Part shown: in pieces, positions 37,088 through 53,310 of the stretch
Numbering within the stretch: the first letter of the stretch is position 1
Layout of the letters: the number at the start of each line of letters is the position of its first letter
Origin: an uncultured Bacillota bacterium
GTDB taxonomy: Bacteria; Bacillota_I; Bacilli_A; RFN20; CAG-631
NCBI GenBank assembly: GCA_905197115.1
Contig: CAJJXN010000002.1
Span: 1-58,946 of the forward strand
Direction of reading: 5' to 3'
DNA length: 58,946 nucleotides
Program-made: the position numbers and the translations under genes
The notes under the pieces: model-generated
Database searches by the model: none
What the model saw: the letters and a program-made list of their open reading frames with translations, nothing else
What the model was told of the DNA's origin: nothing

Positions 37088-38569
37088 TTATTTTATTTCA
37101 ACTATTTTAGTGGCAATATTTTTTATAAAAGTAACATCATGCTCTACAAAAATAAGGGTTATATCCGAATCTTTTAACAATTCTTCAATCTGTATTCTTG
37201 AAATCACATCAATATAATTTAATGGTTCATCCCATATATACAAATTCGCTTCTTCACATAAACTTTTCGCGATTAAAACTTTCTTTTTTTGTCCTTCACT
37301 AAAACAATCAATTGAAATTTGAAATTGTTCTCTTGAAAATCCCAACTTAAATAACATATTGAAAAATTTCGTTTGGTCTAATTGATTTTCATATACAAAA
37401 TCTATTAATGTTCCTTTTAAATTGTCATATTTTTGACATATATAAGATATTTTTATTTTATTGTCCATATAGAAACTTCCATGATATTGAATATTCTCAG
37501 TTAATATAAATTTTAATAAACTTGTCTTTCCACAACCATTGGCACCTACAATAGCAATTTTATCATTTTTTAGAACTTCAAAAGAAATTGGATTAAATAA
37601 ACATTTTGAATCATAATATAAAGACAAATTTTTTGCTTCAATGATACTTTCTTTATTTAATTCTTGTGAATTGAACGATAATTTTTCTTGTTGTTCAATA
37701 TTTTTTAGCAATTTTGATTTTTCTTCAATGGATTTATTTTTTCTTGCTTCCATGACTTTTCCATGTTTCGCCATTTTTGCAGCTTTATGCCCTATAGCCC
37801 CTTTATCGGGCTTTAATCCACCTATTCTTGTTCCATTCTTTGTATTTTCCACTTTATCTGACCAAGTTATTTTTTGTCGCATACTTTCTTGTAAACGTGA
37901 AATTTCTTTTTTTAACTTTTCATTTTGTTCATTTTCAAAATTATCTTGATTTTGTTTGTTTTGCCACCAAGAGGTGAAATTTCCTTTTTGAATTTCAATA
38001 TCTTTTTTATTAATTGAGATGATATGGTCTACACAATGATCAATAAAATCACGATCATGTGAAACCACAATAAATCCTTTTTGTTGATTTAAGAATTTTT
38101 TTACACATTCTCTACTTTTAGAATCTAAATGATTAGTAGGTTCATCAATTAATAAAAAGTTATTTTCTTTTGAAAATAAGATGGCTAATAAAAGTTTCGT
38201 TTGCTGACCATTAGATAAAATATCAAAAGGTTGATATAAGCATTCTTCATCTAATTCTAAAGTATGCATTTTTTTCATGACTTCCCATAATTCACATTCA
38301 GGGTTCATTTCATAAAGTATGTCAATAGCTAATTGATTCTTGTTTTGAACAATGTAGGGAAAGTAATCAAAATGTAAAGGACTACTAATTTTTCCCTTAT
38401 ATTCATATTTTTTAAGCAATAAATTTAACAATGTTGTTTTCCCTCGTCCATTGCGGCCAATTAACCCTATTTTCCAAGTTGTATCAAAAGATAGATTGAT
38501 ATTTTCAAAAACATTTTCTGCATTTCCATCGTATGCAAATGTTAAATTTGTAATATTAATTTGTGCCAT
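37088..38569 (-). CDS. ABC-F ATPase, Lsa-like (candidate ribosome-protection antibiotic-resistance factor)
   Basis: Two ABC cassettes without TM domains (GRNGRGKTT.. / GANGCGKTS.., LSNGQQTK / FSEGQKKK, LLIDEPTNHLD / YIWDEPLNYID) joined by a K/E-rich linker. The N-terminus INITNLTFAYDGNAENVFENINLSFDTTWKIGLIGRNGRGKTTLLNLL closely resembles Lsa-type proteins. Start set at ATG 38569 (AAGGAGG RBS); the upstream extension would include the terminator. Confidence 0.85.
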   Translation of the reverse strand: MAQINITNLTFAYDGNAENVFENINLSFDTTWKIGLIGRNGRGKTTLLNLLLKKYEYKGKISSPLHFDYFPYIVQNKNQLAIDILYEMNPECELWEVMKKMHTLELDEECLYQPFDILSNGQQTKLLLAILFSKENNFLLIDEPTNHLDSKSRECVKKFLNQQKGFIVVSHDRDFIDHCVDHIISINKKDIEIQKGNFTSWWQNKQNQDNFENEQNEKLKKEISRLQESMRQKITWSDKVENTKNGTRIGGLKPDKGAIGHKAAKMAKHGKVMEARKNKSIEEKSKLLKNIEQQEKLSFNSQELNKESIIEAKNLSLYYDSKCLFNPISFEVLKNDKIAIVGANGCGKTSLLKFILTENIQYHGSFYMDNKIKISYICQKYDNLKGTLIDFVYENQLDQTKFFNMLFKLGFSREQFQISIDCFSEGQKKKVLIAKSLCEEANLYIWDEPLNYIDVISRIQIEELLKDSDITLIFVEHDVTFIKNIATKIVEIK

Positions 38570-38587
38570 ATTCTTAACCTCCTTACA

Positions 38588-38732
38588 TAAAAAAGCCACA
38601 AGGAAATAACCTTATGGCTTGTTATTTATAACAATGAATAAGATGAATTAATTTCCTTGTTTGCACAGCAAAAAGAAGTTAATTCAATTTATTGTGCTAC
38701 TATTTAATTAAAAGATTCTTTCTCATGTTCAT
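38588..38732 (-). promoter_or_regulatory. Leader-peptide attenuator of the ABC-F gene
   Basis: 10-codon uORF MNMRKNLLIK (38700-38732). Terminator AGCCAUAAGG-uuauuu-CCUUGUGGCU plus U6 (38588-38619). Upstream ACAAGGAAAU (38651-38660) is complementary to AUUUCCUUGU in the terminator loop/3' arm, which makes it a candidate antiterminator. Confidence 0.7.
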
Positions 38733-38837: not shown

Positions 38838-39887
38838 TTAAACTTTTTTTGCTACATATGAAACGGGAATTAAATCAAAAATTTTCAACAACTCTTCTCC
38901 ATCAAAAACTTCTACATTATAAGTTTTTAACGACATATTTAAATTATATACTCTATACAGTTTGAATTGTTTTTTCTTATCTCTGCAAATTTCAAGTTCT
39001 TTTGCTGTTAAATAGAAATTCTCAATCATATTTGATTTTGTTGTTTTTACTTCAATAAATATTTCATTATTATATTCATCATAAGATAAAATGTCGTATC
39101 CTAATCCATCACCTTTTGTTATTGCTACATGTTCAACTGGTTTTGAAATTCCTTTATCAAGTAATTTATTTTCTTCATCTTTTAAGATAAGACACTCTCC
39201 AAAAGTGCCAAGTTTTTTCTGCCTTTTATTTAATGCATTAAAATCAATTTTTCTATGAGTGACTTTTCTATTTTGTGATTCTTTTTTTTCATTCTGCTCT
39301 ACACTATTATTTTTATAAATTCCTTGGTAATCATTTATATTTTCTGAAGAACTTTCGATTATTGTATTTTCTTCTAAAATTGATGTGATTCCTTTTAAAC
39401 TTATATCTTCAAAATTAATTAACTTTATTTTCTCTTTTCCCAGTATTGATAAAAACTCGTCTTTTGTTATTTGATTCATTCCATATTGATTCCAAAAATG
39501 TCCCCAATTTCCATCTTTTTTCTTTTTTGATGTCCAACTTATTGAATTTAATCTTGAATCCGTTTCATAAATAGGATTTTCCAAAGAAAAACCTGTAGAA
39601 ACAATTGCTTCCACATTCCCGTAATTATCAATTTTTTTTATCGATTGAATAATTCCACCACCAAAAAAATAAAATTTTTTGCTTTTAGAATATCTTTTGG
39701 GCTGCCTATAAATAAAAAGAGAGCCTTCTTCTAATTTTGCATATTTTCTAAGATTATAGCAATACTTTATATAATTTCTATCTCCTAATTGACTGTTTGT
39801 GACAACATTATTTAATCCATCTTGTTTTGTGTCCAATACATAATATTTTCCAGATATATTTTTATCTAATAAATCAGTTATATTCAT
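38838..39887 (-). CDS. DUF3883-type PD-(D/E)xK nuclease with N-terminal beta-rich reader-like domain (candidate type IV restriction enzyme)
   Basis: C-terminal LGTFGECLIL...GYDILSYDEYNNEIFIEVKTT...FYLTAKELE...YRVYNL matches the DUF3883 / restriction-endonuclease-like pattern (D...ExK). The N-terminal ~150 aa is an unassigned domain. Start placed at ATG 39887 (GGAGGTG RBS); the track start at 39911 is a TTG. Confidence 0.7.
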   Translation of the reverse strand: MNITDLLDKNISGKYYVLDTKQDGLNNVVTNSQLGDRNYIKYCYNLRKYAKLEEGSLFIYRQPKRYSKSKKFYFFGGGIIQSIKKIDNYGNVEAIVSTGFSLENPIYETDSRLNSISWTSKKKKDGNWGHFWNQYGMNQITKDEFLSILGKEKIKLINFEDISLKGITSILEENTIIESSSENINDYQGIYKNNSVEQNEKKESQNRKVTHRKIDFNALNKRQKKLGTFGECLILKDEENKLLDKGISKPVEHVAITKGDGLGYDILSYDEYNNEIFIEVKTTKSNMIENFYLTAKELEICRDKKKQFKLYRVYNLNMSLKTYNVEVFDGEELLKIFDLIPVSYVAKKV

Positions 39888-39973
39888 TTTTCCACCTCCT
39901 ATCTTATCCAAATTATAACTAATTAAAATTGTATGCTTGTATTTGATTTGAATATAAAATCCAAACCTAATTT

Positions 39974-42004
39974 CTATCTTTTATAAACATTTAATGGTTG
40001 CTTTTTAAATTTATGATTAGCAGAAAGAATTTTTATAGGAATAACTGTCAAATTATATTGGTCATTTTCTAAATCTAAAAATGCCCAAATTTTAGTTTTT
40101 GTTTCTTCAAATTTTTTCTCGTCTTGGAGTTTATCTTGAATAAATAAAATAACATGATGACATGAATTATTTTCTTTTTGCTTTGTTCCCATACAAATTT
40201 CTAAAATATCTTCACTATCTTTTGCAATCTCAATAACTTTATTTACCACTGTTTCGTTACTATAAGCGATTAGCTTATCATTAAGATTAATTCTTAAAAC
40301 ATATTCTAGTGCTTGTTCATTATCATAAGTAGAAGCAATTAATTCTCTTAAAGAATTTCTTAACTCTAATTTACCTGTAATTGTTGCATATTCTCCTAAT
40401 GCATCAAATGCAGTTGTGACAAATTGTGAATTTTTTTCTTCAAATACTAATTGCAAATGAGAAATACAATCATCACTAAATTCATAAAAAGCCAAAATCA
40501 TACCTAATATTAAATGAGCTCTCGAATTATCTTTTGCAACTTCTAAAACTTTTAAAGCACAACTTTTAGCAAATTCCATTTCCCCACATTGAAAAGCTTG
40601 GTCCATTAAAGCTTGTACTTCATTTATTTCAATGTTGAAATTAGATTCAATAGCTGCTTCTTTTTTAGAAGTATATTCATCATAAAATTGAATAAAGTGA
40701 TCAAATACTTCGATTTTTTCTTTTTTTAATACTTTTTCATTAATTTCATTGTAAAAAATTCGAATATCTTCATCAAAATAATTTGACGAAACAATTAATG
40801 GATCTACTTCTTTGCTTGCAAATTTTTCGACTCTTTGTTTTACGTTAGGATGTGTAGGTAATCTTGATTCAAGATGATTTTTAGAAGCAAAGAGAAAAAA
40901 GTCTTGATGTTGATTATAAAAAGATAAATATCTATCAAAATATTGTTGAATAGTTTCATCATCCCATTGATGCTTTTTAGATAGTGCGTATTCAATATCA
41001 TATCTAGGAATTCTATAAGCATAAGCCAATCCAAAAAGTTTGATTGCCACTCTTGCATATGCATCGCCAACATTTTTATTTAACACTTCATTATCAGCTT
41101 GTGTCTCATATGCAATTGAAGTACTTAATTGTAATATTTCATTATCAATTATTACAAAAGACATTTTAGGATAAATAAAGAAGTACATACTATATGGTAA
41201 GAGAACATTTAAAAGATTGGTATACTTTTCTTTTTCTTGCGTTAATTTTGTATGTTCTTTTTTATAATGTGCAATTTCATGATAAATAACTGATCTAATT
41301 TCTTCTTTTGTGAAAAACTTTAAAATTACAACTCCTATAGCAATAGAAATTATATTGTTTTTTTCTGAAATCCCAACATTTACATCATCAATTAAATTAA
41401 TCTCAATTTCTTTATCTATTCCTTCTTCTGCAAATATATCTTTAATAAATTGGTATGTTAAAGGATACTTAATTTCCTCTATTCCTTTATCAAATAGTTT
41501 CATAAATAAAACATAAAAAATTGTTATCCCTGCACCTATAGATATAAGCAATAATGAACCAATAATTGCAATGTATAACCCTGCCACTTCAATTTCTTCT
41601 AAATGATTAAAAACTTTAAATGCAAAACCATTTACAAAAACTAATAGAATTTGAAAAATATAAAATGAGATAGTATACATACAAACTTTTTTATAACTTG
41701 CTATTACTCTTTTATAATTTGATTCATAATTTTTAAGTGCTTCATCTTTCTTTTCTAATATAGTAGAAAGCATCTCTTCTCCATTTTTTGCTTGTAATTG
41801 ATTGTTATATTTTTTTGTTCTACTAGCATTTAATAAAAATAATAACATGAATAAAACATCAACTATAGCTAATGGTATCCAAATATTTATGTTTAAATTT
41901 AATTTATTCCCTAATAAAATTCCTAAAGTATAGACTCCAACAAATAAAATAATTGACGATAAAATGGCTAAAAATATGGATAATCCCTTGTTTTTCTTAT
42001 TCAT
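39974..42004 (-). CDS. Membrane-bound M48-like zinc metalloprotease with large C-terminal helical domain
   Basis: 676 aa. About 4 N-terminal TM segments. HEIAHYKKEH (HExxH), a downstream ETQAD and THPNVKQRV are typical of M48/BlaR1-like peptidases. The C-terminal ~250 aa is helical. Confidence 0.7.
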   Translation of the reverse strand: MNKKNKGLSIFLAILSSIILFVGVYTLGILLGNKLNLNINIWIPLAIVDVLFMLLFLLNASRTKKYNNQLQAKNGEEMLSTILEKKDEALKNYESNYKRVIASYKKVCMYTISFYIFQILLVFVNGFAFKVFNHLEEIEVAGLYIAIIGSLLLISIGAGITIFYVLFMKLFDKGIEEIKYPLTYQFIKDIFAEEGIDKEIEINLIDDVNVGISEKNNIISIAIGVVILKFFTKEEIRSVIYHEIAHYKKEHTKLTQEKEKYTNLLNVLLPYSMYFFIYPKMSFVIIDNEILQLSTSIAYETQADNEVLNKNVGDAYARVAIKLFGLAYAYRIPRYDIEYALSKKHQWDDETIQQYFDRYLSFYNQHQDFFLFASKNHLESRLPTHPNVKQRVEKFASKEVDPLIVSSNYFDEDIRIFYNEINEKVLKKEKIEVFDHFIQFYDEYTSKKEAAIESNFNIEINEVQALMDQAFQCGEMEFAKSCALKVLEVAKDNSRAHLILGMILAFYEFSDDCISHLQLVFEEKNSQFVTTAFDALGEYATITGKLELRNSLRELIASTYDNEQALEYVLRINLNDKLIAYSNETVVNKVIEIAKDSEDILEICMGTKQKENNSCHHVILFIQDKLQDEKKFEETKTKIWAFLDLENDQYNLTVIPIKILSANHKFKKQPLNVYKR

Positions 42005-42118
42005 AATGTACTCCTTTAATTAATTATTTAAGTATATTATAACATTAAAGGAGTCAAAAATATATTAGATTAATGTATCTTTTAATAGTTAATACATAAT
42101 TTATATAAATTTATACAT

Positions 42119-42154
42119 AAAAACCAAATTCTATAATAACTTTGAATTTGGTTT
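42119..42154 (-). terminator. Intrinsic terminator downstream of decayed radical-SAM gene
   Basis: AACCAAATTC...GAATTTGGTT 10-bp stem followed by a U-run when read on the minus strand. Confidence 0.65.
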
Positions 42155-42189
42155 TATTATTTTATTTATATTTTGAAAAACAATGACAA

Positions 42190-42545
42190 ACTAACAACTT
42201 ACTTTTTTAAATAAATAATTGTTCTTCCTTCATTAAATGGATGCGGAAGTGTTTTCAAACCCCTTTTATTGTGAAGATTATTTTTATTCATTCACATTTT
42301 TAAAGCATATCATTTTTTTGAAATAACTTTATTATTACAAACTTTATCAATTAATCGATTCGTTTCATCATAATGAATCAATTGATATGCCAATCATCGA
42401 TAATTTATTTTTATTCTTTGAAATAAATTTTTCGTCAAGGTAATATCCATTTGTAATCAAAGAAACTTCTAAGTTTATTTCAAATAAATAATCAATAAAC
42501 ATTTGAATATTTTTTGATAACAATGGCTCACCACCTACCAAATTA
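42190..42545 (-). pseudogene. Radical-SAM enzyme remnant (5' end missing, frameshifted)
   Basis: Minus-strand frame reads VGGEPLLSKNIQMFIDYLFEINLEVSLITNGYYLDEKFISKNKNKLSMIGISIDSL then a stop. It continues in another frame as HYDETNRLIDKVCNNKVISKK, then hits more stops. No CxxxCxxC-encoding 5' part remains. Confidence 0.65.
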
Positions 42546-42657
42546 ACTCATTATTTATTTTTTTAGTATTCCACCTTCAATTTAAAAAAAACTCTTTTGA
42601 TTAGGTAAAAGAAGTTGAACTCGTTGAACTGCATCCTTTATAATCAAACAATCCCCA

Positions 42658-45600
42658 CTATTTTAATTTCCAATTTTTAAAGAAATCAGAAATAAATACA
42701 TCTTGGTTAGCATAAAGAATTCTATTTACTTCTTTCTTGCTCATATCAAGTAAATCAGCTATTTTTCCAGCTTTAATTCCTCGCTTTTCGTCTAAAAGAA
42801 CTTCTTTAATACGATCTAAATTTGAAACAATATCAGTTTCTTCATCACTGTTTTCTTTATCGAATTCTTTTTGTTCTAAAGAAGCAAAAAAAGTTAAAGA
42901 ATCAGCCTGAGTTTCTTCAATACTATAGTCTTTTTCAACATTAAATTGTTTATCAACTGTGGCTTCAGTCTCTTCAGCTATTTCATGAACTTGATATTTA
43001 ATATAATCAATAAATGATTGCCCTCCCTCAAGAATTGTTGCTCCTACTTCTGTTTCATCTAAGCCAAAACCAAACCAATCAAAAGAATTCCTATATTGTC
43101 TTTTAACTTCTTCATCTTCAAGATTCAACTTAGAACCTAATGATTCATTAACAAAGAATTGGTGAATATAGTTATTAAGTACGTTTTCTTGAAATATATG
43201 ATATTTATTTAAAACTTCAAAGTCTTTCTTAGTAATACCTACAGCTTCTAAGAAAACATTAGGATCAGCGTTGTTAAATATTTCTTGGAATGTTGTTTCA
43301 CGATAAACACTTATATATAAAAATTCAAATAAACGTGCCAATATATGCTTCATGACGTTATCAGCATCTTCAACCGATTTTCCTTTTTCATAAGGAACTT
43401 TAGGGGCAAGCTCATTCTTAACGGCTCTCTTAAAAGAATCTGAATACCATCGCCTATATAGTGCACCTCTATATTCAACTGGAACATTATTCGTGTCATT
43501 AAGATACTTATGCATAAAATCAGTGATCATTTTTTTTGTATCTTCTTTCCAAACGATTGATTCTCCGAATTTTTCTTTTACTTTATTTACAAATTTAACA
43601 CCATCATCATGACCGCAATTTAATTTTTTAACAGGCGCATTAACTCCGCTTTCATATCCTTTTATAAATCCGTTTGACCACCATGTCGACTCCACTTGAT
43701 CATAATCTTTTGGACAAAATTCTTTAATATAATCTGCCATTGTCTGTTCAAAAGCCAATTGAATTTCTGAATTGTCATAATCAACGTAATTTTCGTAGTC
43801 TTTCATTCCAAGTTCGTAGCCTTTATCACGGCCAGTTTTTGCAATTTTAGTTTGGAATCCATCATTTTCTGGTTTTTGGGGCATAGTTTGAGATTTTGTC
43901 TTGTTGAATTTTGCATGAGCAAATACTCTTTTAATAACATCACTTACTTCATTATCATTAAGCATTGATGCTATAACTTCTTCATCAAGCATCCTTGTTG
44001 TCTTTGAAGTATCAGTGATTTTTCTAGAAAGTGGTATACCACTTGTATCACCCAATTCCGCTAATTCATAGAATACATCAGCACCGATTGGCTGAGTCAT
44101 ATCTCCATTAACAAAAATAGGCATATATTTAACAATAAGCTTGGCAATTTGAAGTTTAGTAACTGCTCTATCTTCGGATTGTTCAGCGTATTTCAAAAGT
44201 AAAGCAGCTGCTCTATCGATATTAAAATCATAGACAAAACCATACGTTTTTTTGATTTCACCTTTTTCTTTATAAGGTGTTTGAATTCTAAATATTGATT
44301 GGAAATATTGTTCAGGAGAAGCTAAATCCTTCAAAACGAATACACTAAACCACTCTTTTACAGTTACACCGATAGTAAGTTTATTAACTGTTAAAGCAAT
44401 AGAACCTAATTTGTTAGTATTATTTGCTGCAGTAATTTCATCTTTCAAATAATCATAAGCATCAACGCCAGCTCCTACGCCATCTTTAGAAAGGTCAATT
44501 ATTTGGTATTTCTTAAAATAATCGTCTTCTTCTAAAAGCTTAGCCATCGCATGGACTGCATTTACTCTAGGCATAAGCCATAGTGTGTGTTTATTATTAT
44601 TTAACATATCTACGTTTGAATATGGAAATTTATCACCAAATGTTGATTTGCCTTTGATTATTTCAAGCCATTTCTTAATTTCTTCTTCATAAACGAAAAC
44701 ACAAGGTTCGTTTGGATTGGAATCCCTTCTGGTTTCAAAGAACCTATTCAAAGAAAAATACTTCTTTCCATAAAGAGTGTCTCCAGAAAAAACTGAAGCA
44801 GTCATATTTGAGAAAAGTCTAGTCATGTTATAACCAAAGATTCTCATATCTGGAAAATGTGCATAATCAGGATTAACTGTTTTGAAGTCACCTTCATCGC
44901 TATTTGGATATTTATTTCTTTGCTCATCAAAATATGAATATGTGAAAGTATTTTCTTTCGTGAACTCCCCTTTTGCAATTGCTTTAAATGGAGTTCCAGA
45001 TAAACATATTGTTTGTCTTGTATTGATTTTAAATGTTTCAATAATATCTTTAGTTTTCTTTAGTTCTTTTTGATATTCTTTATCCAAATCTTCTTGACTC
45101 TCAAGCGTTCCTTGAGTTCTTTCGTTCCACGCTCCGAAGTGATATTCATCCAATACTACTAAATCCCAATCGATCTCTTGAAGTTTTTTAATCTTTTCTT
45201 TGGTTTCAAAGGAGTTTCTATTTTTACCTAGATAATTTTGCAACGACAAAAATATTACATAAGGATCAGAGATAAAATTAGGTATAAAGCTATCTCTTCT
45301 TAAATTTTCGTCAGTATAGTAATCGTAATGTTTTTTAATATGAGTCAAATCTTCTCTCCACGAAGATTCAACGGCTGGAATAAATGTAAGAATTAAAACC
45401 TTATCTAATCCTGCTTCTTCACAATATTTATATGTGGTGAATGATTTGCCATATCTCATTTTACAGTTAAGAAGGAATCTGCCACCTAATTTGTGATCTT
45501 TAAAATAATTTAGTAACGCATCAACGCATTCTCTTTGTTCTTCTCTTGGCTCATATATTTTGTTATTGAAACCATCTTTTCTGCATTGCTCAAAAACCTC

Positions 45601-46038
45601 AACAAGTTCATCGGCAGGAACGTTTTGGAACCATTCTTGCTCTTTCTCGGTTAAGCCAGATTTCATAGCTAGAATTTGGTCGTGAACTTTGTAGTCTTTG
45701 AATGATTCATCGTGAGCATCCAAACAAACACCCCAATAAATTACTTCTCTTTCAAGACCGTATTTTGCATATTGTTCTTCAGTCAAAGCAAGCTCATTTT
45801 GCTGATTTTTAATTCTAGCTTTAATTGCATGCCAAAAAGTCTCATCCATTTTGCATTTTGTCATTCCTACTTTAATTCCATGAGATTGGAACTTCGGCAG
45901 AATGTACATGTATAAAACAATTAAGTTTTGTTCAGTATCATTTATATCGTCTAAATGTAATGTTTTAGGCTTTCCTTTATATTTTACCGAATCAGTAGGA
46001 TTAATATCAGCAGATTTTTTTACTTGTATTTCAGCCAT
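42658..46038 (-). CDS. SF2 helicase (ResIII/DEAD-like) with N-terminal T5orf172/GIY-YIG-like domain and C-terminal winged-helix-like tail
   Basis: 1126 aa. N-terminal LYMYILPKF..GIKVGMTKCK...ARIKNQ...KVHDQI. Helicase motifs KMRYGKSFT (I), VVLDEYHFGAW (II), CLSGTPFKA (III), QSIFRIQTP (VI-like). The last ~50 aa, KAGKIADLLDMSKKEVNRILY, look like a wHTH. Confidence 0.8.
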   Translation of the reverse strand: MAEIQVKKSADINPTDSVKYKGKPKTLHLDDINDTEQNLIVLYMYILPKFQSHGIKVGMTKCKMDETFWHAIKARIKNQQNELALTEEQYAKYGLEREVIYWGVCLDAHDESFKDYKVHDQILAMKSGLTEKEQEWFQNVPADELVEVFEQCRKDGFNNKIYEPREEQRECVDALLNYFKDHKLGGRFLLNCKMRYGKSFTTYKYCEEAGLDKVLILTFIPAVESSWREDLTHIKKHYDYYTDENLRRDSFIPNFISDPYVIFLSLQNYLGKNRNSFETKEKIKKLQEIDWDLVVLDEYHFGAWNERTQGTLESQEDLDKEYQKELKKTKDIIETFKINTRQTICLSGTPFKAIAKGEFTKENTFTYSYFDEQRNKYPNSDEGDFKTVNPDYAHFPDMRIFGYNMTRLFSNMTASVFSGDTLYGKKYFSLNRFFETRRDSNPNEPCVFVYEEEIKKWLEIIKGKSTFGDKFPYSNVDMLNNNKHTLWLMPRVNAVHAMAKLLEEDDYFKKYQIIDLSKDGVGAGVDAYDYLKDEITAANNTNKLGSIALTVNKLTIGVTVKEWFSVFVLKDLASPEQYFQSIFRIQTPYKEKGEIKKTYGFVYDFNIDRAAALLLKYAEQSEDRAVTKLQIAKLIVKYMPIFVNGDMTQPIGADVFYELAELGDTSGIPLSRKITDTSKTTRMLDEEVIASMLNDNEVSDVIKRVFAHAKFNKTKSQTMPQKPENDGFQTKIAKTGRDKGYELGMKDYENYVDYDNSEIQLAFEQTMADYIKEFCPKDYDQVESTWWSNGFIKGYESGVNAPVKKLNCGHDDGVKFVNKVKEKFGESIVWKEDTKKMITDFMHKYLNDTNNVPVEYRGALYRRWYSDSFKRAVKNELAPKVPYEKGKSVEDADNVMKHILARLFEFLYISVYRETTFQEIFNNADPNVFLEAVGITKKDFEVLNKYHIFQENVLNNYIHQFFVNESLGSKLNLEDEEVKRQYRNSFDWFGFGLDETEVGATILEGGQSFIDYIKYQVHEIAEETEATVDKQFNVEKDYSIEETQADSLTFFASLEQKEFDKENSDEETDIVSNLDRIKEVLLDEKRGIKAGKIADLLDMSKKEVNRILYANQDVFISDFFKNWKLK

Positions 46039-46039
46039 A

Positions 46040-47770
46040 TTAATTCATCTCCTTAATCGAACTTTCTATTAAATTAATTTCATCTGCTGTTAAATTATAT
46101 TTTTTGTATAGTTTATCATCAGTCCATGCTTCACTGAAATTTTGTTTTGGAAGAAATACAAGAACACTACGTGATAAATGTGTTGAAGACATCGCAAGCC
46201 AAATCAAAAAACGAGAAAACCTAGTTTTTAAATAAGAACAAAGATTATCTGCTTCCTTTTTATTATCAAATTTACCAATTAAAAAATAAGATTGAGTACA
46301 AGCCGTTTTTGGACCTATAACTCTCATTGAGTTGGTAATAATTCTAAAACGACCATCTTTATCTGGTTCTAATGCATGCTCTGCGCCAAGAATTCCAACC
46401 AAAACTTTATATTTGTTTAAATAATCCACAGATTTTTTTATTTCAGATTTTTTAATATACGTAATATCTTTGCTGGAAATAAGCTCAATATCATTTTCAT
46501 TTTGTTTTGTTATTGAACCTCTAACATCTGACTTTAAGCCAAACGGCATTGTTGAACTGGCAAAAGAAGTCATATTTTCTTCATTGTAACTACTAATTTT
46601 TTCCAAAATGTCGACAGCCTTATTATTTCTAACTAAAATCGGAAATTCATTTAAATCTCTTGAAATGGAATATTTAGAATCGCTATTAACATTTGTGAAC
46701 AGACACCTGCCGTTGTAGTCTCTACCCCACAAAAAATAACAAACTCCGCCAGCTACACTATTTGACGGAAAACAATCTTTTGCGTTTGCAAAATCATTAA
46801 GACAAATTATTTTTCTACATGACATCATATATTCTCTGAACTCATCTAAGACTGACATGCCACCCGCAAACCATTTCGATGGAATAATCATGGAAATATA
46901 CTTTGGTTTTAGAGCAACTGCTTGCTTAAAAAACAATTGATAAATAGGCATAGAAGGCGGATTACCTTTTTCGGTTGTATCTTTTTTCGTATCTAGTTGA
47001 TAAGGCGGATTTCCTATAATAATATCGAATTTCATATTTCTATTACCTCCAAAAAACCTATCTTGTAAATGTTCTAATAGTTCGTTTCTTTCAGTATGAA
47101 TAAATTCATACGCGTACGTTTCTTTTTGATTTATATCGTTATATTTTGAATCACCTGCAATGCTACAATATTTGCATTTGTATTTGCTCTTTTCTTTCTC
47201 GCTGCAATTAAAGAACATCTTTTTACCTCTATTGTTCACAAATAAATGATCAGCACATGGTGTTTTGATATTTCCTTCTTCATTATCAAACCATGTTCCA
47301 TTACCAATTGCATACCCATTAATGTAATGTCCGTCTGGAGCTTTTAATCCATCACATTTTCTATTGGCTTGTGAACAGTAATAAACCGTTCTTCTTGCTA
47401 CATTAGCGGTAAATTTTGTTTGGCCGATAGAGTAAATCATATTTTGAAGAATGTGTTTTCTTCTTTTTTCTTTATCAGGTATTACATCTTTTAACCCTTT
47501 ATCAAGTCTAATGGCAATCTCTCGTTCAAAAATACCATTTTTTGTTGCAGGGTTTAACCACTTGTAATTAGGATTGTGCCACACTTCTTCAGGCAAAGAA
47601 TCAAGCATCATATCACAAGTTTTTCGAGGAGTGAAAACCTCATCGTTACCAACATTTGTAATAGTTTCTAAAATATCAAAATTTTCAACGTAATCATAAG
47701 CATCCTCAACTGCGGTTTTATACTTTTCTTCGGCATCTAATGCTTCATTGTTCTTGATTTCATCTACCAT
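46040..47770 (-). CDS. Eco57I/TaqI-like N6-adenine DNA methyltransferase-family protein (NPPY intact, SAM motif I degenerate, Cys-rich insert)
   Basis: 576 aa. VFTPRKTCDMM (motif X), LNPATKNGIF in the motif I position, IIGNPPYQ at codons 251-258 (nt 47000-47011 encode NPPY), Cys-rich insert CSQANRKC...CSEKEKSKYKCKYC. The stop lies 1 nt before the helicase ATG. Confidence 0.8.
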   Translation of the reverse strand: MVDEIKNNEALDAEEKYKTAVEDAYDYVENFDILETITNVGNDEVFTPRKTCDMMLDSLPEEVWHNPNYKWLNPATKNGIFEREIAIRLDKGLKDVIPDKEKRRKHILQNMIYSIGQTKFTANVARRTVYYCSQANRKCDGLKAPDGHYINGYAIGNGTWFDNEEGNIKTPCADHLFVNNRGKKMFFNCSEKEKSKYKCKYCSIAGDSKYNDINQKETYAYEFIHTERNELLEHLQDRFFGGNRNMKFDIIIGNPPYQLDTKKDTTEKGNPPSMPIYQLFFKQAVALKPKYISMIIPSKWFAGGMSVLDEFREYMMSCRKIICLNDFANAKDCFPSNSVAGGVCYFLWGRDYNGRCLFTNVNSDSKYSISRDLNEFPILVRNNKAVDILEKISSYNEENMTSFASSTMPFGLKSDVRGSITKQNENDIELISSKDITYIKKSEIKKSVDYLNKYKVLVGILGAEHALEPDKDGRFRIITNSMRVIGPKTACTQSYFLIGKFDNKKEADNLCSYLKTRFSRFLIWLAMSSTHLSRSVLVFLPKQNFSEAWTDDKLYKKYNLTADEINLIESSIKEMN

Positions 47771-48408
47771 ATTTCAACATCCTCCTCATGAAAAGATATG
47801 TTAGTCTCTGAAATATCCCAAACAGGAAAATCCAAAGGTATAAAGTCATTTTTCTCCGCATTTGGCATTTTATATGCAACTTCAGTTCCAAAAATTCCAA
47901 CATCTATCTTGTTTTTGCTATTAAACATAGCCCATATGTAATTTGTAGTTATTATGCATTTAACAATATCAAAATAAGATTGATCAACTTCAATTTTCCT
48001 TTCTTCAACGAATAATATAATCAATGTGAAGATGTTGTTTCTTTGTTTATTTATTAACTCTTTATCCATCTCAATTGAATATATAGTAGATAGGGCTTTC
48101 AAAGATTCAATCTCAAAATTATCTGATATAGTTTCTAATCTTTTTTTTAGAATACATGTTGTAAAAGCTCCATCCCCTGATGTTGGTTCAAGAACCGTTT
48201 TACTAAAATCCAAAATATCTGGTCCTACTGCTTCAGTCATTTGCTTAACAATAAACTCAGGAGTAAAGACTTGATAACCTTCAGTATCGTTAGAACCTAA
48301 AGAAGCTAGTTTCAAAGAATCATAAGCTTCAATTAAATCAAAAGTCTTTATTTGTGTCTTGCTAAGCTTGTTTTTTATGTTTTCTACGAAAGGTGTAAAA
48401 TCCATCAT
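47764..48408 (-). CDS. Truncated methyltransferase-like protein (SAM motifs X, I, II intact; no NPPY)
   Basis: 214 aa. VFTPEFIVKQM (X), VLEPTSGDGAF (I), IYSIEMD (II). The motif IV position reads ITTNYIW. Overlaps the upstream HTH gene (ATGA) and the downstream methylase gene (7 nt). Confidence 0.7.
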   Translation of the reverse strand: MMDFTPFVENIKNKLSKTQIKTFDLIEAYDSLKLASLGSNDTEGYQVFTPEFIVKQMTEAVGPDILDFSKTVLEPTSGDGAFTTCILKKRLETISDNFEIESLKALSTIYSIEMDKELINKQRNNIFTLIILFVEERKIEVDQSYFDIVKCIITTNYIWAMFNSKNKIDVGIFGTEVAYKMPNAEKNDFIPLDFPVWDISETNISFHEEDVEIW

Positions 48409-48623
48409 TTCTCCACCTCTTCCATTTCAATTTCATTTTCTTTGCATAGTTTTTCAATTCTTACTCTAGCAATTTTAACAGGGATGGCTCTATTGTTTTC
48501 CCATCTCGAAACGGTTGGATATGAAACCATCAATAAAGCTGCTAAATCAGTTTGAGAAATATTCAATTTAGATCTTAATTCAATCAATGCTTTAGACCAA
48601 TTAGTTTTATTCATATGTTGCAC
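48405..48623 (-). CDS. XRE-family HTH protein (controller-like regulator of the methylase-helicase operon)
   Basis: 72 aa. LRSKLNISQTDLAALLMVSYPTVSRWENNRAIP. It is the first gene of the translationally coupled operon. Confidence 0.8.
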   Translation of the reverse strand: MQHMNKTNWSKALIELRSKLNISQTDLAALLMVSYPTVSRWENNRAIPVKIARVRIEKLCKENEIEMEEVEK

Positions 48624-48813
48624 CTCGAATAGATTTACAAATTAATTCAAATTATATCATCTTTTTATCTAAATGTCCATTCTTTCGACATATAATTCCA
48701 AATATTTTCCATAATTTTCTCAAATCAATCTCACTCAAAAAATCTAATCGTGTTAAATCGTGTAAAACTTTTGCACCCCTGCCTATAATCTGTAAAAGAA
48801 AAATTATAACGCC

Positions 48814-48969
48814 ATGAAATTGGTGATTTTGATGATGAAAAATGCATCGAAATTTGATGATGAGGTTATGAAAATGCTAGAAATAGGCTTAAAAATGGCA
48901 AAAAAAGGCTATTTTGACGACAAAAAGCCTGATAACCGAGTATCAGACCTATTCTACTTAAATGTGTAA
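48814..48969 (+). CDS. Possible small ORF (51 aa) divergent from the HTH gene
   Basis: ATG 48814 to TAA 48969, encoding MKLVILMMKNASKFDDEVMKMLEIGLKMAKKGYFDDKKPDNRVSDLFYLNV. TATAAT at 48784-48789 upstream. No clear RBS and no family recognised. Below the ORF-track size cut-off. Confidence 0.3.
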   Translation: MKLVILMMKNASKFDDEVMKMLEIGLKMAKKGYFDDKKPDNRVSDLFYLNV

Positions 48970-49500
48970 AGCATACGAAATGGCTATTTAATAATATAGA
49001 AAATAGAAGGATCAACTGCATAATTCTTTTCACTATTTATCTTGTCTAAAATATTTGTTAACGTATAATAAACTTCACATATAAATAAATCATATTTAAT
49101 TCTTCTTAGGTTTCATTTAAGTCAACAAAAATTTTACTATCTTTCAAAAAAATGAATGTGTTAATTCATTTCGAACATTGATAACTACCTGAATCTTTTT
49201 AAATTTAATAATTTTTATTCATTAAACATAAAGCATTAAATTTACTACTTTTAGTTTCTACATCTAATTTCTCTGAAAGACTTCTGCTTAACTCTTCATT
49301 TCTGACATATCATCATTGCTTTTTAAAATTTTAATTTCCGGTTTTCAACTTTACTTTGAATTAATTTAAAACTCATATTTATGTATTCTTCTACATTCTA
49401 AATTAATAAGATTATTTTAAATATCAAAATGTGTACCTTGCAAGATTATCTCCTTTTCATTAGGAATTACCCTCATATTTGATAGCGCTGTGACGTTACA

Positions 49501-50067
49501 CTATTCTAAATATATTTTAATATTTTCTGCTATGTTTAGCCCCTTAACACAATTATTAATATCCTTTATGAAACCATTCTGATATTTTTTTGGTAATACA
49601 TTTTTTAAATATATTAAAGCTTGTTTTAAGTTTAAATCATCTAAATTAAAATCCAACATAATTCTATTATGAGATACTCTATTTCTCAAACTATTTATGA
49701 CCTTTTTTCCATTTTTCAAACTATCAAAATCAATGTCTATATTTAATAATTTCTCCTTATTTAAAACCTCTTTTATTACTTCTTTTAAATAAGAGTTCTC
49801 CAACTTATTGTAATCAACTTTGTCTATATTCCAAATGAGTGCTCTTAAATAATCTTCATAAAAAGATAGATACTTAAAAGTATTTACCAATAATCTTTTA
49901 TCATATCTTACTAAATCATCTAAAAATTTCCAAGTTATTTCTATATTATTTTTATCAAGTATATCAGCAAATTTTTCATACTTAGCAATTCCTTTTAGAT
50001 TCATCCACTTATCTGCTTCTTCCTTATTTGCATCATAGTCAACGATTCTTTTTTTTAATTCCACCAT
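49501..50067 (-). CDS. Abi_2 (AbiD/AbiF-like) HEPN-domain protein
   Basis: 188 aa. YDKRLLVNTFKYLSFYEDYLRALIW and the Rx4H motif in INSLRNRVSHNRIML, as in Abi_2/HEPN proteins. The start overlaps the upstream NTase gene by 29 nt. Confidence 0.75.
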   Translation of the reverse strand: MVELKKRIVDYDANKEEADKWMNLKGIAKYEKFADILDKNNIEITWKFLDDLVRYDKRLLVNTFKYLSFYEDYLRALIWNIDKVDYNKLENSYLKEVIKEVLNKEKLLNIDIDFDSLKNGKKVINSLRNRVSHNRIMLDFNLDDLNLKQALIYLKNVLPKKYQNGFIKDINNCVKGLNIAENIKIYLE

Positions 50068-50695
50068 AATTATTTACCTCTCTTACAAATACTTGTGCAG
50101 ATGATATTTTTGTTTCATCATTATCATCTTTTCTCTTTTCTTTACATTTAACCGGAATAATATAATTTTCAATTAAATCTCTTTTTTCAATATGAGATAA
50201 ATTATTAAATTTTATATACGCTTGATTTAATTGAGGTAGTTCATTCCAAGTAAATTCATTTTTACTTGGAGTTTCTATTTTATTATTTCTTCTTATAATT
50301 TGATTGTTTTCAGGAAATAATTTAATAATTACAAAATCAATATGAAAATGATGTTCATCTTTATTTATTAAAGTAATTGCTGTTGTTGAGTTTTCAATTT
50401 TTTCATTTTTTGAAATATGTTTATTAAAAGCACCAATAAAATCCTGTTTTATCTCTGTAGCATATTTCAATTTATTATTCTTATATTCTTTAGAGTTTTT
50501 AGTTAACAAAATTTGGTAATCTAAATCATAATGTCCCTTTTCATCTTTAACCATAGTTCCCCATTTACCTGATCCAACCAATCTAAATGTAAATGAATAT
50601 TTTTGAGATAATTCTCGTTGAACGATATTAAGAAGTTTTAACGCTCGTTGTCTTGCTACTCTACATTCTTTTTTACTTACTCTTTTAAATCTCAT
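50039..50695 (-). CDS. Minimal nucleotidyltransferase (pol-beta superfamily; SMODS/MNT-like)
   Basis: 218 aa. FRLVGSGKWGTMVKDEKGHYDLDYQI (GS...DxD) and a third acidic residue in HFHIDFVI. The C-terminal ~90 aa forms a helical extension. Confidence 0.75.
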   Translation of the reverse strand: MRFKRVSKKECRVARQRALKLLNIVQRELSQKYSFTFRLVGSGKWGTMVKDEKGHYDLDYQILLTKNSKEYKNNKLKYATEIKQDFIGAFNKHISKNEKIENSTTAITLINKDEHHFHIDFVIIKLFPENNQIIRRNNKIETPSKNEFTWNELPQLNQAYIKFNNLSHIEKRDLIENYIIPVKCKEKRKDDNDETKISSAQVFVREVNNYGGIKKKNR

Positions 50696-50722
50696 TATAT
50701 CATTTCCCCTCCACTCTTTTCC

Positions 50723-51364
50723 TCACTTTATCTCGCTATTAATATAAATCTCTGTTAATATATCTTCCATTCGAAGATAAAAGGATTTTTTGCTGTATAG
50801 AGTTCCAATAGTTTTTGCTATACTTGAAAATATTGCCCATCCTATTAGTACTAAAACTACTAGTTCTGAAATAATCTGTACCTTTTCATTAACAATATTG
50901 GCATTTTGATCATAAATAAAGGTCCCCATGCTAATAAAAACAGCTAAAATTGATAAAAATGCTCCTCCGCCATTTATAGAACGTGGAATATAAACTCTAT
51001 AATGCTCTATAATGTGTCCCACTTTTGGCCTTGTATTAATACCTTCTTCTTTTAAAATCTTTTTAAGTAATTCCTTGTCTTTATTTCTTTGGTTATTAAA
51101 AAAATTGTTTATGGTATAAGATAAATTGAATACTTTTTTCCAATTATTTTTTGAATACACCTTCATATAGACATTTTTAAAAACGATGTATGTATATATG
51201 ATAAAACATAAAAATATTATGAAAATAATAAAAAAACAAAGATTAGTTTCTTTTAAAATTAAAAATCCGAATACAAAATAAAAAACAAAAGTTATAAATA
51301 AAAAGAAGATATTTTTATGATAAACGGATGATTTTTTAAATTTGCTTTCTATATTATTAAACAT
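50723..51364 (-). CDS. Four-TM membrane protein (candidate membrane effector)
   Basis: 213 aa. TM pairs at about residues 18-62 and 143-195 flank a basic ~80-aa loop. 27-nt gaps to both neighbours. Confidence 0.65.
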   Translation of the reverse strand: MFNNIESKFKKSSVYHKNIFFLFITFVFYFVFGFLILKETNLCFFIIFIIFLCFIIYTYIVFKNVYMKVYSKNNWKKVFNLSYTINNFFNNQRNKDKELLKKILKEEGINTRPKVGHIIEHYRVYIPRSINGGGAFLSILAVFISMGTFIYDQNANIVNEKVQIISELVVLVLIGWAIFSSIAKTIGTLYSKKSFYLRMEDILTEIYINSEIK

Positions 51365-51391
51365 TATTATTAACTCCTTCCATAGAACAAT

Positions 51392-52375
51392 TTACTTGAA
51401 AATTCTATAGTTTAATTCATCTAAATCGTCTATATAACACTCAAATATATTTTCTATTCCTGCAAGTTTAGCATTTGAATATACTAAATCTTTTTCATTA
51501 TCTGGCATGTTTAATCCTAATATAATTCCCCATGGTTTCCATTCCATTGTTATCGGCTTATCACACCAAATCGGAGATATCATACGCCATTCTTGATCAT
51601 ACATATGACATTTTTTCTTTATTAACGTAATTTTTTCTCTTTCCCATTCCAGTTTAGGGAACAAATTAAAAATTATATCATTCGCTATTTTATTAGAAGT
51701 AAGTTGCCTTAAAACTAAAGATGCACTAAACCATTTTGCATATTCTGTAGCATTGTATGGTTCATCCGAATAATAAATAGGATATAATGAAGGATTAGCA
51801 TTTTTTAAATCACACGTATCGCATTGATCTTTTTTTCCACATAAATAATTAGCTTCATTTTCCATATCATATATAAGTGCAAATCCTTTATGTTGGTTGG
51901 CATATTTAATCCACAATGTTTCATTTAACCCATTTTCTGAAAAACAAACTGATAATGTATAACTTCTTAAAGTATTTCTAATATCACTTTTGATTAATTT
52001 AACTATTTCATTACAAAAATTTTTAGTATCAAATGATTCTAATATTTTATTAATTGATTCTTCATTAAACGGAATGCCTATTTCTTTATACATGTATTTT
52101 ATTTTTTCAACAATATTATCTCGATGAAAAATTTCATTAATACTATTATATATTTCATTCTTGTCAATTCTTAAAAAAGTATCAAAAGGGTCATCATAAT
52201 AATTTGATGTAGAAAAAATTAATTTGTTATTTTTTAACTCTTCCAAACTTTTCATTGTTAAACTTCTATATCTATAAAGATATTTCGGATATTTTATTAT
52301 ATTTTTGGAAAACTTATCATTACTTTTTAAAGAACATAATGTGTCCCAAAAAACTTTTCTTTCTAAATTATTCAT
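51392..52375 (-). CDS. DUF2971-family protein
   Basis: 327 aa. N-terminal YLYRYRSLTMKSLEELKNNKLIFSTSNYYDDPFD matches the DUF2971 signature (YRY.s....l.n..l.fs.p..fNDPfE) as I recall it. Confidence 0.7.
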   Translation of the reverse strand: MNNLERKVFWDTLCSLKSNDKFSKNIIKYPKYLYRYRSLTMKSLEELKNNKLIFSTSNYYDDPFDTFLRIDKNEIYNSINEIFHRDNIVEKIKYMYKEIGIPFNEESINKILESFDTKNFCNEIVKLIKSDIRNTLRSYTLSVCFSENGLNETLWIKYANQHKGFALIYDMENEANYLCGKKDQCDTCDLKNANPSLYPIYYSDEPYNATEYAKWFSASLVLRQLTSNKIANDIIFNLFPKLEWEREKITLIKKKCHMYDQEWRMISPIWCDKPITMEWKPWGIILGLNMPDNEKDLVYSNAKLAGIENIFECYIDDLDELNYRIFK

Positions 52376-53219: not shown

Positions 53220-53310
53220 TGGCGGAGAAAGGGGGATTTGAACCCCCGCACAGTGTTACCCGCCTACTAGCTTTCCAAGCCAGCCCCTTCAGCCTCTTGG
53301 GTATTTCTCC
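53220..53310 (-). tRNA. tRNA-Ser (anticodon GGA), encoded CCA end
   Basis: Reverse complement GGAGAAATACCCAAGAGGCTGAAGGGGCTGGCTTGGAAAGCTAGTAGGCGGGTAACACTGTGCGGGGGTTCAAATCCCCCTTTCTCCGCCA. It has a 7-bp acceptor stem and an anticodon stem CTGGC/GCTAG with loop TTGGAAA. It also has a long variable arm and a TPsiC arm GGGGG-TTCAAAT-CCCCC. Confidence 0.9.

Follow-up and report, generated by a model that had tools for sequence, protein, structure and literature searches.

Does a tightly packed group of four genes from an uncultured Bacillota bacterium (CAG-631) encode a restriction-modification system, and if so, how would its methylating and cutting parts be divided among the proteins? We examined this group in a window, by which we mean the whole analyzed stretch of 58,946 nucleotides (nt), positions 1-58,946 of contig CAJJXN010000002.1 (assembly GCA_905197115.1). 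The group consists of four minus-strand open reading frames (ORFs) within 48623-42658, whose coordinates chain them through overlaps or a near-zero gap. They encode an XRE/Cro-type helix-turn-helix (HTH) protein, a 214-amino-acid (aa) protein, a 576-aa DNA methylase and a 1126-aa helicase with a T5orf172-like N-terminus, which we call the effector. A preliminary description, drawn from the letters of the DNA, had proposed a four-gene operon with these domains and a restriction-modification-like role in defense, and all of this held up.

We found that the window contains a real, intact member of a large restriction-modification-like family for which no characterized members were found. The new observation is that the canonical residues predicted to bind S-adenosylmethionine (SAM) occur family-wide in the small 214-aa protein and never in the methylase's own N-terminal half (N-half). 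We think it probable, with considerable room for doubt, that the operon specifies an ATP-dependent restriction-modification system with separate subunits, which would work in the manner of Type ISP or Type I with the nuclease exchanged.

The HTH stop codon and the start of the 214-aa gene share a 4-nt ATGA overlap, and the 214-aa and 576-aa genes overlap by 7 nt (ATATGGTAG); both junctions can be read in the sequence as first described. The 1-nt gap between the 576-aa and 1126-aa genes, also described before, is given by the ORF coordinates. None of the four reading frames is interrupted, and every catalytic motif is retained. Since the gene order is repeated in loci whose helicase is only ~30% identical, the arrangement is not due to chance.

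The GC content is 31-32% across the operon versus 24-25% in both flanks, and DNA similarity to related loci is limited to 42659-48666. This contrast and the confined similarity mark the operon as a compact, horizontally moving cassette. Judged by such features, it is a horizontally acquired cassette inside a defense island adjoining a tRNA-Ser gene.

Two N-halves and one catalytic half

The family carries two copies of a methylase N-half, one as the 214-aa protein and one within the methylase itself, for each single half that bears the NPPY motif and the recognition domain. The 576-aa protein matches the Pfam Eco57I family (E 1e-27), in line with the earlier call of an N6-adenine-methylase-like protein with NPPY. 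Its motifs follow the order X, I and IV (NPPY), and a variable C-terminal domain comes after them, which is the gamma-class arrangement. Among 65 aligned distant homologues, NPPY was found in every one, and 64 kept its final Tyr. In the methylase's own N-half, motif X reads NDEVFTP, motif I is a variant (NPATKNGIF) in which Lys replaces the first Gly, and motif II reads IYSIGQT, with Gly116 at the normally acidic position.

The 214-aa protein was collinear with methylase residues 15-146 in an alignment. Its motifs are X (FTP 48-50), I (LEPTSGDGAF 73-82), II (YSIEMD, with Glu113) and a motif-III-like Asn156 that is invariant in the family alignment. It has neither NPPY nor a target-recognition domain.

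In class I SAM-dependent methyltransferases, the glycine loop of motif I and the acid of motif II are the hallmark contacts with SAM. We looked at these positions in distant loci. All 38 distinct small proteins carried E-P-x-x-G-x-G-x-F, and all 38 had the motif II acid (20 Glu, 18 Asp). The 44 N-halves that the distant methylases carry in cis all had Lys instead of the first motif I glycine, and none had an acid at the motif II position, which was occupied by Ala, Gly or Ser.

The small protein family comprises 272 cluster representatives, and 119 of the 120 listed are 210-229 aa long. This uniform length across the family indicates a genuine protein and not a truncated gene. A Pfam scan of the 214-aa protein gave no match. 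With its AlphaFold2 model (predicted local distance difference test, pLDDT, 84; predicted template modeling score, pTM, 0.84), the top Foldseek matches were the gamma-class methylase domains of LlaBIII, CamA, BsaXI, MmeI and HsdM; they are weak (E at least 0.09), and their alignments span ~110 columns, equal to half of a methylase fold. Small proteins in the same position on plasmids matched N6_Mtase and MmeI_Mtase at profile positions ~20-117 only. Additionally, the 328-aa protein that holds this position in locus L005 aligned with the 214-aa protein in BLASTP only over the motif I stretch, and a profile comparison of the two was weak (E 0.006).

Fused relatives bring the small protein and the catalytic half together. 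In loci L067 and L071, a related N-half of the small-protein type (EVFTP, LELACGEAPY, YGYELQGD, IISYNIFQMNG) continues straight into the NPPY half, which gives a methylase of ordinary appearance. The homologues P0343 and P0377 are single chains that include the helicase, and in them a module resembling the 214-aa protein separates the cis N-half from the NPPY half. These fusions suggest that the small protein is a genuine partner of the catalytic half. Taken together, the invariant motifs, the Foldseek matches, the plasmid homologues and the L067/L071 fusions support the half-methylase call of the preliminary description. That description also spoke of two methylase-like proteins; both are indeed methylase-related, but the wording understates the small one, a conserved, stand-alone half that is predicted to bind SAM. 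By its occurrence in the sequenced loci, this putative SAM-binding half is an obligatory family member.

The methylase itself has more than 5,700 homologues. Its identity to relatives is 85-92% over aa 41-160 versus 35-48% in the recognition region, and DNA similarity to otherwise 70-80% identical loci is lost between 46157 and 46703, in the recognition domain. As this domain is the most variable at both the protein and the DNA level, its specificity appears to be diversifying, as expected in restriction-modification. The Cys/His-rich insertion is probably a zinc-binding module, and it is missing from several single-chain relatives.

We wondered how two N-halves might serve one active site. 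A possible, still doubtful answer is a two-piece methylase. The small protein would be the real SAM-binding half, which docks onto the NPPY/recognition half and makes or gates the active site. The methylase's own N-half would then be a duplicate without catalytic function and would link the methylase to the motor-nuclease, and assembly with the small protein would decide between methylation and restriction. If true, self-modification would be licensed in a manner that is undescribed for restriction-modification systems. The stand-alone half raises the question of how self-methylation is controlled in such systems, and accessory requirements are topical, as methylation by the MANTIS system was recently reported to depend on accessory proteins.

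Table 1. Positions of the operon, its protein domains and its candidate promoter in the window
Feature	Position	Strand	Basis or defining residues
Effector, 1126 aa (T5orf172-like domain, superfamily 2 (SF2) motor, helical C-region, linker, tail)	42658..46038	minus	
T5orf172 (GIY-YIG superfamily) domain, aa 39-152	45583..45924	minus	Y43, K56-V-G58-x-T60, R75, H119, E135-W-F
SF2 helicase-like ATPase core, aa ~162-700	43939..45555	minus	Pfam ResIII 6.7e-6, invariant motifs
All-helical C-terminal region, aa ~730-967	43138..43851	minus	AlphaFold2 secondary structure
Variable linker, aa ~977-1063	42850..43110	minus	pLDDT <50, low-confidence
C-terminal helical tail, aa 1064-1126	42661..42849	minus	winged-helix/Z-alpha-like
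Eco57I-family N6-adenine methylase with its own target-recognition domain, 576 aa	46040..47770	minus	Pfam and PADLOC
Methylase's own N-half, aa 41-131	47378..47650	minus	conserved columns, most conserved part of the protein
Cys/His-rich insertion, aa 132-202	47165..47377	minus	invariant C132, C139, C199, C202, H148, H175
Catalytic motif IV NPPY, aa 254-257	47000..47011	minus	invariant in family alignment
Hypervariable target-recognition domain, aa ~340-576	46043..46753	minus	protein and DNA divergence
214-aa protein, stand-alone N-half of a gamma-class N6-adenine methylase	47764..48408	minus	motifs, model, family
XRE/Cro-type HTH protein	48405..48623	minus	72 aa from GTG; 69 aa from ATG at 48614
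Likely operon promoter	48651..48679	minus	TGGACA, 17 nt, TG-extended TATAAT; consensus match only

The effector and a possible mechanism

A word-indexed search returned more than 3,000 homologues of the effector, with 1,496 representatives after clustering at 50% identity. The SF2 helicase of the preliminary description is confirmed by the ResIII match and by Q168, Walker A (G197-K198-S), DEYH (297-300), SGT (347-349) and QxxFR (580-584). Using the AlphaFold2 model (pLDDT 79), Foldseek ranked LlaBIII first (PDB 4xqk, 3.9e-10), followed by Chd1, ISWI, Snf2, XPB, RadD, RapA and ZorD. As far as the model goes, these structural matches belong to the SF2 branch that translocates on double-stranded DNA. 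When all three proteins were searched against the PDB by sequence and by profile, nothing significant came back; the best for the effector was RapA at E 0.015, covering motif II only.

For the N-terminal domain, T5orf172 was the top direct Pfam match with the whole profile covered, at E 0.014 and 16.4 bits (cut-off 20). The cut-off was passed by six of the nine relatives aligned over this region, and a seventh reached 19.6 bits; a Rhizobium plasmid homologue likewise matches T5orf172. Among relatives ~25-30% identical, Y43 and K56 are invariant, and G58, T60, R75, D115 and E135 are at least 90% conserved. Further, the strand-strand-helix-strand-helix order predicted by AlphaFold2 fits the GIY-YIG fold. 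The relatives above the cut-off, the conserved residues, the fold order and the whole-profile match support the T5orf172-like N-terminus proposed earlier, and the domain likely belongs to the T5orf172 family. No PD-(D/E)xK domain was detected anywhere in the effector by Pfam scans or in the AlphaFold2 model, as had been supposed.

Does this domain cut DNA? In a BREX-like, methylation-guided and non-cutting defense, T5orf172 would be a DNA-binding or regulatory module, and the motor would block replication or remodel invader DNA at unmethylated sites. The sub-threshold score of the effector fits this, and so does the description of T5orf172 as largely uncharacterized with DNA-binding roles proposed (PMC9973331). 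Snf2-like remodelers also predominate among the structural matches after LlaBIII, and the effector tail resembles a DNA-binding winged helix. However, Y43, R75 and E135 are conserved in relatives only ~25-30% identical, the related T5orf172 protein Gp88 of phage ICP1 has been described as an origin-directed nuclease (PMC8263062), and RefSeq calls the homologues GIY-YIG nucleases. We regard non-cutting defense as unlikely, and keep to an ATP-dependent restriction-modification system with a putative T5orf172 nuclease.

Behind the motor, a Pfam scan of the helical C-region gave no match. This region is partly conserved even in ~830-aa relatives, and distant tblastn matches reach query residue 961. 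In the linker, between 42845 and 43056, resemblance to related loci at the DNA level is lost. In the homologue P0032, matched blocks 1-1021 and 1062-1126 flank ~180 extra residues, and the protein bears a match to PF06094 (GGACT, gamma-glutamyl cyclotransferase-like). From these blocks and this match, a GGACT domain appears to be inserted in the disordered linker of some close homologues, between helical C-region and tail and at about aa 995-1063 of the effector. The GGACT homologues are P0024, P0026, P0032, P0033 and P0035 (loci L008, L095 and L096).

We dropped the idea that the GGACT relatives are N-terminal domain swaps, as their extra residues appear to fall in the C-terminal linker. We also dropped the idea that the ~999-aa relatives lack the N-terminus; they are short forms without linker and tail. 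The winged-helix-like tail of the preliminary description is weakly supported: a z-alpha match reached E 8e-4 and 19.9 bits versus a cut-off of 21, and the AlphaFold2 model has four helices with no wing strands predicted. The tail is kept in P0032 and lost from the ~999-aa variants, and in locus L003 the match ends at query residue 994.

Gene order and overlaps, domain identities, catalytic motifs, synteny and fusions across the family, the variability of the recognition domain and the defense-island setting are direct observations. From the domain content we infer a working scheme that takes in methylation activity and its strand pattern, subunit assembly, translocation, DNA cleavage and phage protection. 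The 576-aa methylase would read a short DNA site through its variable C-terminal domain and N6-methylate adenine to mark host DNA. Methylation would also need the 214-aa protein, which probably supplies or senses the cofactor. At unmethylated sites, the methylase complex would engage the effector. Its Snf2/Type ISP-like SF2 motor would then move along double-stranded DNA using ATP, and its N-terminal T5orf172 (GIY-YIG-type) domain would nick or cut the DNA. Where present, the HTH protein would probably autoregulate the operon promoter, as controller proteins do elsewhere.

Several points weigh against this scheme. The Foldseek template modeling score (TM-score) is low (0.28), because only the motor superposes, and no sequence-level similarity to LlaGI/LlaBIII, HsdR or Res was found, Type I HsdR being reached only at E 0.73. 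The effector's own T5orf172 score is under the Pfam cut-off, and some T5orf172 proteins may be only DNA-binding. The role of the 214-aa protein in the system is putative. No conserved C-box operator was found at the HTH promoter in a comparison with locus L001. For the whole family, methylation, cleavage and protection are predictions. Finally, the dnmA-yeeB-yeeC genes of B. subtilis gave no restriction of plasmids or phages (PMC9973331).

This last precedent, without restriction or defense phenotype, would also fit a relic or domesticated system, as proposed for DnmA-YeeB-YeeC: the methylase would be an orphan epigenetic regulator, and the helicase-nuclease would no longer restrict. The four intact frames with all catalytic motifs and the tight coupling of the genes speak against such decay. 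So do the thousands of full-length homologues with the same synteny, the diversifying recognition domain and the presence of the cassette in defense islands and on plasmids. We consider domestication quite unlikely, and an active restriction-modification system remains our preferred reading.

Family distribution, regulation and neighboring genes

A profile-guided metagenome scan gave 80 loci with a helicase ~30% identical, from soil, marine, freshwater and gut samples. The window order (small half, methylase, T5orf172-helicase) was found in 38 of the 80. Another 14 have methylase and helicase only; 8 of these have <600 nt of DNA upstream of the methylase, 4 have a diverged small half-methylase ORF there, and 2 have none. 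Helicase-methylase fusions account for 13 loci, all flanked by a second type of small protein of 310-358 aa, which lies upstream in 12. The helicase precedes the methylase in 3 loci and stands alone in 12, 10 of which end at or near the contig start. Most loci that deviate from the order of the window are interrupted by contig ends.

T5orf172, helicase and Eco57I methylase also occur in single chains (P0383, P0366). Such gene fusions, seen in these two chains, in the 13 metagenomic loci and on plasmids of lactic acid bacteria, indicate that the components are tied functionally. The Rhizobium phaseoli plasmid pRphaN671a keeps the window gene order, and RefSeq names its products 'N-6 DNA methylase' (215 aa), 'Eco57I ... 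methylase' (538 aa) and 'GIY-YIG nuclease family protein' (847 aa). On Lactococcus cremoris pUC047G and a Lactiplantibacillus plantarum plasmid, a small protein is followed by a fused helicase-methylase of 1,417-1,461 aa; annotation calls the small protein of the lactococcal plasmid an N-6 DNA methylase. On pUC047G (locus L094, 2664-7049), a ~1,460-aa helicase-Eco57I methylase follows the small half-methylase, and enterococcal plasmids are arranged likewise. The N-terminal 290 aa of the lactococcal fused protein are not T5orf172-like and gave only a weak DUF4145 match, and the effector domain therefore seems exchangeable in the family.

Could the cassette instead serve mobile elements, as an addiction cassette or as an anti-restriction methylase-helicase that protects transferred DNA? 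Homologues lie on 81 plasmids of several phyla, 45 of them conjugative or mobilizable, and in a few phage records, and the cassette moves as a compact unit, which would suit this role. A nucleotide search of the operon against plasmids gave no match. Phage homologues are, however, rare (5 of 50,697 records), and in the window the cassette lies outside any recognizable plasmid or prophage backbone. A variable, sequence-specific recognition domain together with a nuclease-motor is a restriction signature, and addiction behavior would fit a restriction-modification system without replacing it as the explanation. We judge a role confined to mobile elements very unlikely, and return to the restriction-modification reading.

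Close relatives in metagenome-assembled genomes of gut Bacilli retain the core of small protein, methylase and helicase within defense islands. The neighbors in the window and its sister loci include PD-T4-1/PDC-S36-like, CD-NTase-like, SIR2, AAA_21, SLFN-type helicase and SMODS/SLATT genes, recombinases and transposases. Homologues of the family were found in gut, soil, marine and freshwater metagenomes and on plasmids of several phyla, including those of dairy lactococci and enterococci. New specificities for methylation and cleavage would become available from its variable recognition domains.

In one related locus, L008 (2520-12463), the small-half and methylase genes are immediately preceded by the gene for another helicase, a paralogue of 1031 aa, which matches PADLOC profile PDLC03626 at positions 6-997 (8e-236). 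Downstream lies a stand-alone T5orf172 gene (PDC-S57, 4.5e-72), whose product showed no BLASTP similarity to the N-terminal 160 aa of the effector. The locus may hold two tandem systems or one that was rearranged. We dropped this T5orf172 gene as proof that T5orf172 is obligatory, as other GGACT-variant loci are without such a gene.

The first gene of the operon matches Pfam HTH_3 (E 2.5e-9), which bears out the XRE-type call. Its GTG at 48623 sits within a ribosome-binding site (GAGGTG), and an in-frame ATG at 48614 lies 6 nt downstream. Given this spacing and the agreement with the start of the L001 homologue, the ATG is the likelier start, and the protein is probably 69 aa long. HTH homologues in the same first position were found in a minority of related loci (L001, L004, L005-7, L049 and L079), and most others have none, such as L009-11. 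The preliminary description had counted the HTH gene as an operon component; it is present and of XRE type, but is an optional accessory rather than part of the core. The protein is possibly a C-protein-like controller.

The promoter candidate is the best sigma-70-like site in 41900-49500, with 11 of 12 positions matched. A 5-bp inverted repeat, ATGTC-N9-GACAT, overlaps its -35 hexamer. L001 keeps the extended -10 element and not the inverted repeat. Farther upstream, at 48744-48780 (minus), ~130 nt from the HTH start, we noticed a ~25-nt segment, GGGTGCAAAAGTTTTACACGATTT, with a twice-repeated ACACGATT. The segment, which recurs upstream of the L005 HTH gene (about 4960-5030) though the L005 proteins are only ~70% identical, could serve in regulation or mark the edge of the cassette.

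Other features border the operon. Next to the cassette, a 57-aa frame at 42368-42541 (minus), VGGEPLLSKNIQMFIDYLFEINLEVSLITNGYYLDEKF, has a GGEPLL motif; it resembles the interior of a radical-SAM enzyme and so seems to be what is left of such a gene. A possible terminator, made of an AT-rich hairpin with a T-run behind it, lies at about 42119-42154. Just downstream of the operon are two co-directional genes, 39974-42004 and 38838-39911 (minus). The 676-aa protein has a weak Peptidase_M48 match, and the 357-aa protein matches NOV_C (DUF3883), PDC-S36 (PADLOC, 1e-33) and PD-T4-1 (8e-20); the two may form a separate two-gene defense candidate.

Upstream, at 49501-52375 (minus), four tightly packed co-directional genes encode proteins of 188, 218, 213 and 327 aa. 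The 218-aa protein is similar to the N-terminus of a CD-NTase/oligonucleotide cyclase, matching PADLOC Cyclase at 2e-10 and, weakly, a DncV-like Pfam family, and the 327-aa protein matches PDC-S31 (2e-23). The group could be a degenerate or unusual CBASS-like cluster. A tRNA-Ser(GGA) gene at 53220-53310 (minus) and a MutY-like glycosylase gene at 53405-54436 (plus) border the low-GC block of defense genes, and this tRNA gene may mark an integration hotspot of the island.

Comparison with known systems

How does the family relate to described systems? We found no experimental (biochemical or genetic) study of the helicase-methylase-small-half family in the literature. PADLOC gave no match to any component of Type I, Type III, BREX or DISARM, so the system is none of these in classical form, as had been claimed. 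The search for a named subtype had a mixed outcome, as REBASE-derived Type IIG and Type II methylase profiles were the only ones to match. Among Type II methylase profiles, PDLC03375 matches the 576-aa protein at 5e-37, and PDLC03390 picks up the small protein in sister loci. The labels that homologues bear in RefSeq are 'GIY-YIG nuclease family protein', 'Eco57I ... methylase domain-containing protein' and 'N-6 DNA methylase'. Since annotation tools pick up no more than pieces of it, labeled Type IIG or Type II methylase, the system is likely mis-binned and its contribution to blocking phages and plasmids overlooked.

The Type IIG profile PDLC03626 (1359 positions) is covered by the effector at positions 160-604 (1e-31) and by the methylase at 991-1359 (2e-37); the window thus spreads over two proteins what the profile holds in one, and fused relatives already fall under this Type IIG profile. 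We take the members of this profile to be predicted, not characterized, enzymes. Type IIG/IIL enzymes share with the window an Eco57I/MmeI-type methylase with a recognition domain. Type IIG enzymes such as Eco57I and MmeI differ in having no ATPase motor, in cutting at a fixed distance and in carrying the nuclease on the methylase chain.

Type III differs in its beta-class Mod and in the C-terminal nuclease of Res, whereas the window has a gamma-class methylase, an N-terminal nuclease-like domain and an all-helical C-region. Type I is closer, with separate motor-nuclease and methylase subunits, a nuclease N-terminal to the SF2 translocase and a gamma-class methylase. It differs in having HsdS and a PD-(D/E)xK nuclease; the operon has no HsdS-like gene, and its recognition domain lies within the methylase.

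MADS, MANTIS (Gao_RL) and Hma also pair a methylase with a helicase-nuclease effector, and MANTIS hemimethylates asymmetric sites (bioRxiv 10.64898/2026.09.23.753747). MADS is composed of eight genes, and we ruled out membership: mad1 and mad2 gave 0.004 and 1e-5 in PADLOC, and 13 and 20 bits in NCBIfam versus cut-offs of 80 and 720. A 503-aa double ABC ATPase ~4 kb downstream of the operon (37088-38599, minus) matched PADLOC mad3 at 2.8e-41, spread over four stretches; the match most likely reflects the likeness common to ABC ATPases and is no sign of MADS. MANTIS differs in having the AAA+ protein MtsA, MtsB and the PLD-helicase MtsD. Hma has a Snf2 helicase with a C-terminal PD-(D/E)xK nuclease (PMC11232893). 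Membership in MANTIS and Hma was ruled out, as the components are different, and PADLOC and NCBIfam gave no significant match to them.

The preliminary description left out the closest analogues, which are Type ISP and a class of methylase, helicase and GIY-YIG systems. Its term 'under-described' is fair; to place the system beyond every known layout would go too far. Systems made up of a helicase, a GIY-YIG protein and a methylase that has its own recognition domain were predicted by Morgan et al. (2009), with an action related to Type I (PMC2731913). The DnmA/YeeA-YeeB-YeeC genes of B. subtilis are an example of a methylase, helicase and T5orf172 cluster (PMC9973331). The yeeA/yeeB genes of Vibrio crassostreae, annotated as methylase and helicase, mediate phage resistance (bioRxiv 10.1101/2021.05.05.442762). 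They belong to the DnmA/YeeA-YeeB type, which resembles the class of Morgan et al.

By domain content, DnmA-YeeB-YeeC and the window alike combine in one operon an SF2 helicase, T5orf172 and a methylase that has a recognition domain, and both are found in defense islands. Unlike the effector, in which T5orf172 is fused at the N-terminus, DnmA-YeeB-YeeC keeps helicase and T5orf172 separate. Its methylase is MmeI-like, whereas that of the window is Eco57I without an MmeI Pfam match; MmeI_Mtase was matched, weakly, only by the small half-proteins of sister loci. The half-methylase gene of the window is additional.

Type ISP enzymes are single polypeptides with an N-terminal Mrr-family PD-(D/E)xK nuclease; they hemimethylate an asymmetric site and cleave when two translocating enzymes meet head-on. 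They have no stand-alone SAM-binding half-methylase, and LlaGI/LlaBIII show no detectable sequence similarity to the window proteins, which are three polypeptides with the methylase gene before the motor and a T5orf172/GIY-YIG-like domain. With another nuclease family, a split enzyme and no such similarity, the window system is, as judged from sequence, not a member of the Type ISP family. In design the two are nonetheless alike. Both place an N-terminal nuclease, putative in the window, before an SF2 motor and a gamma-class N6-adenine methylase before its recognition domain, LlaBIII is the best structural match of both the effector (at a low TM-score) and the 214-aa protein (at a weak E-value), and single-chain relatives of the family with the Type ISP domain order exist. 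If our reading is true, the Type ISP/Type I design would be workable with a GIY-YIG-type nuclease and separable subunits.

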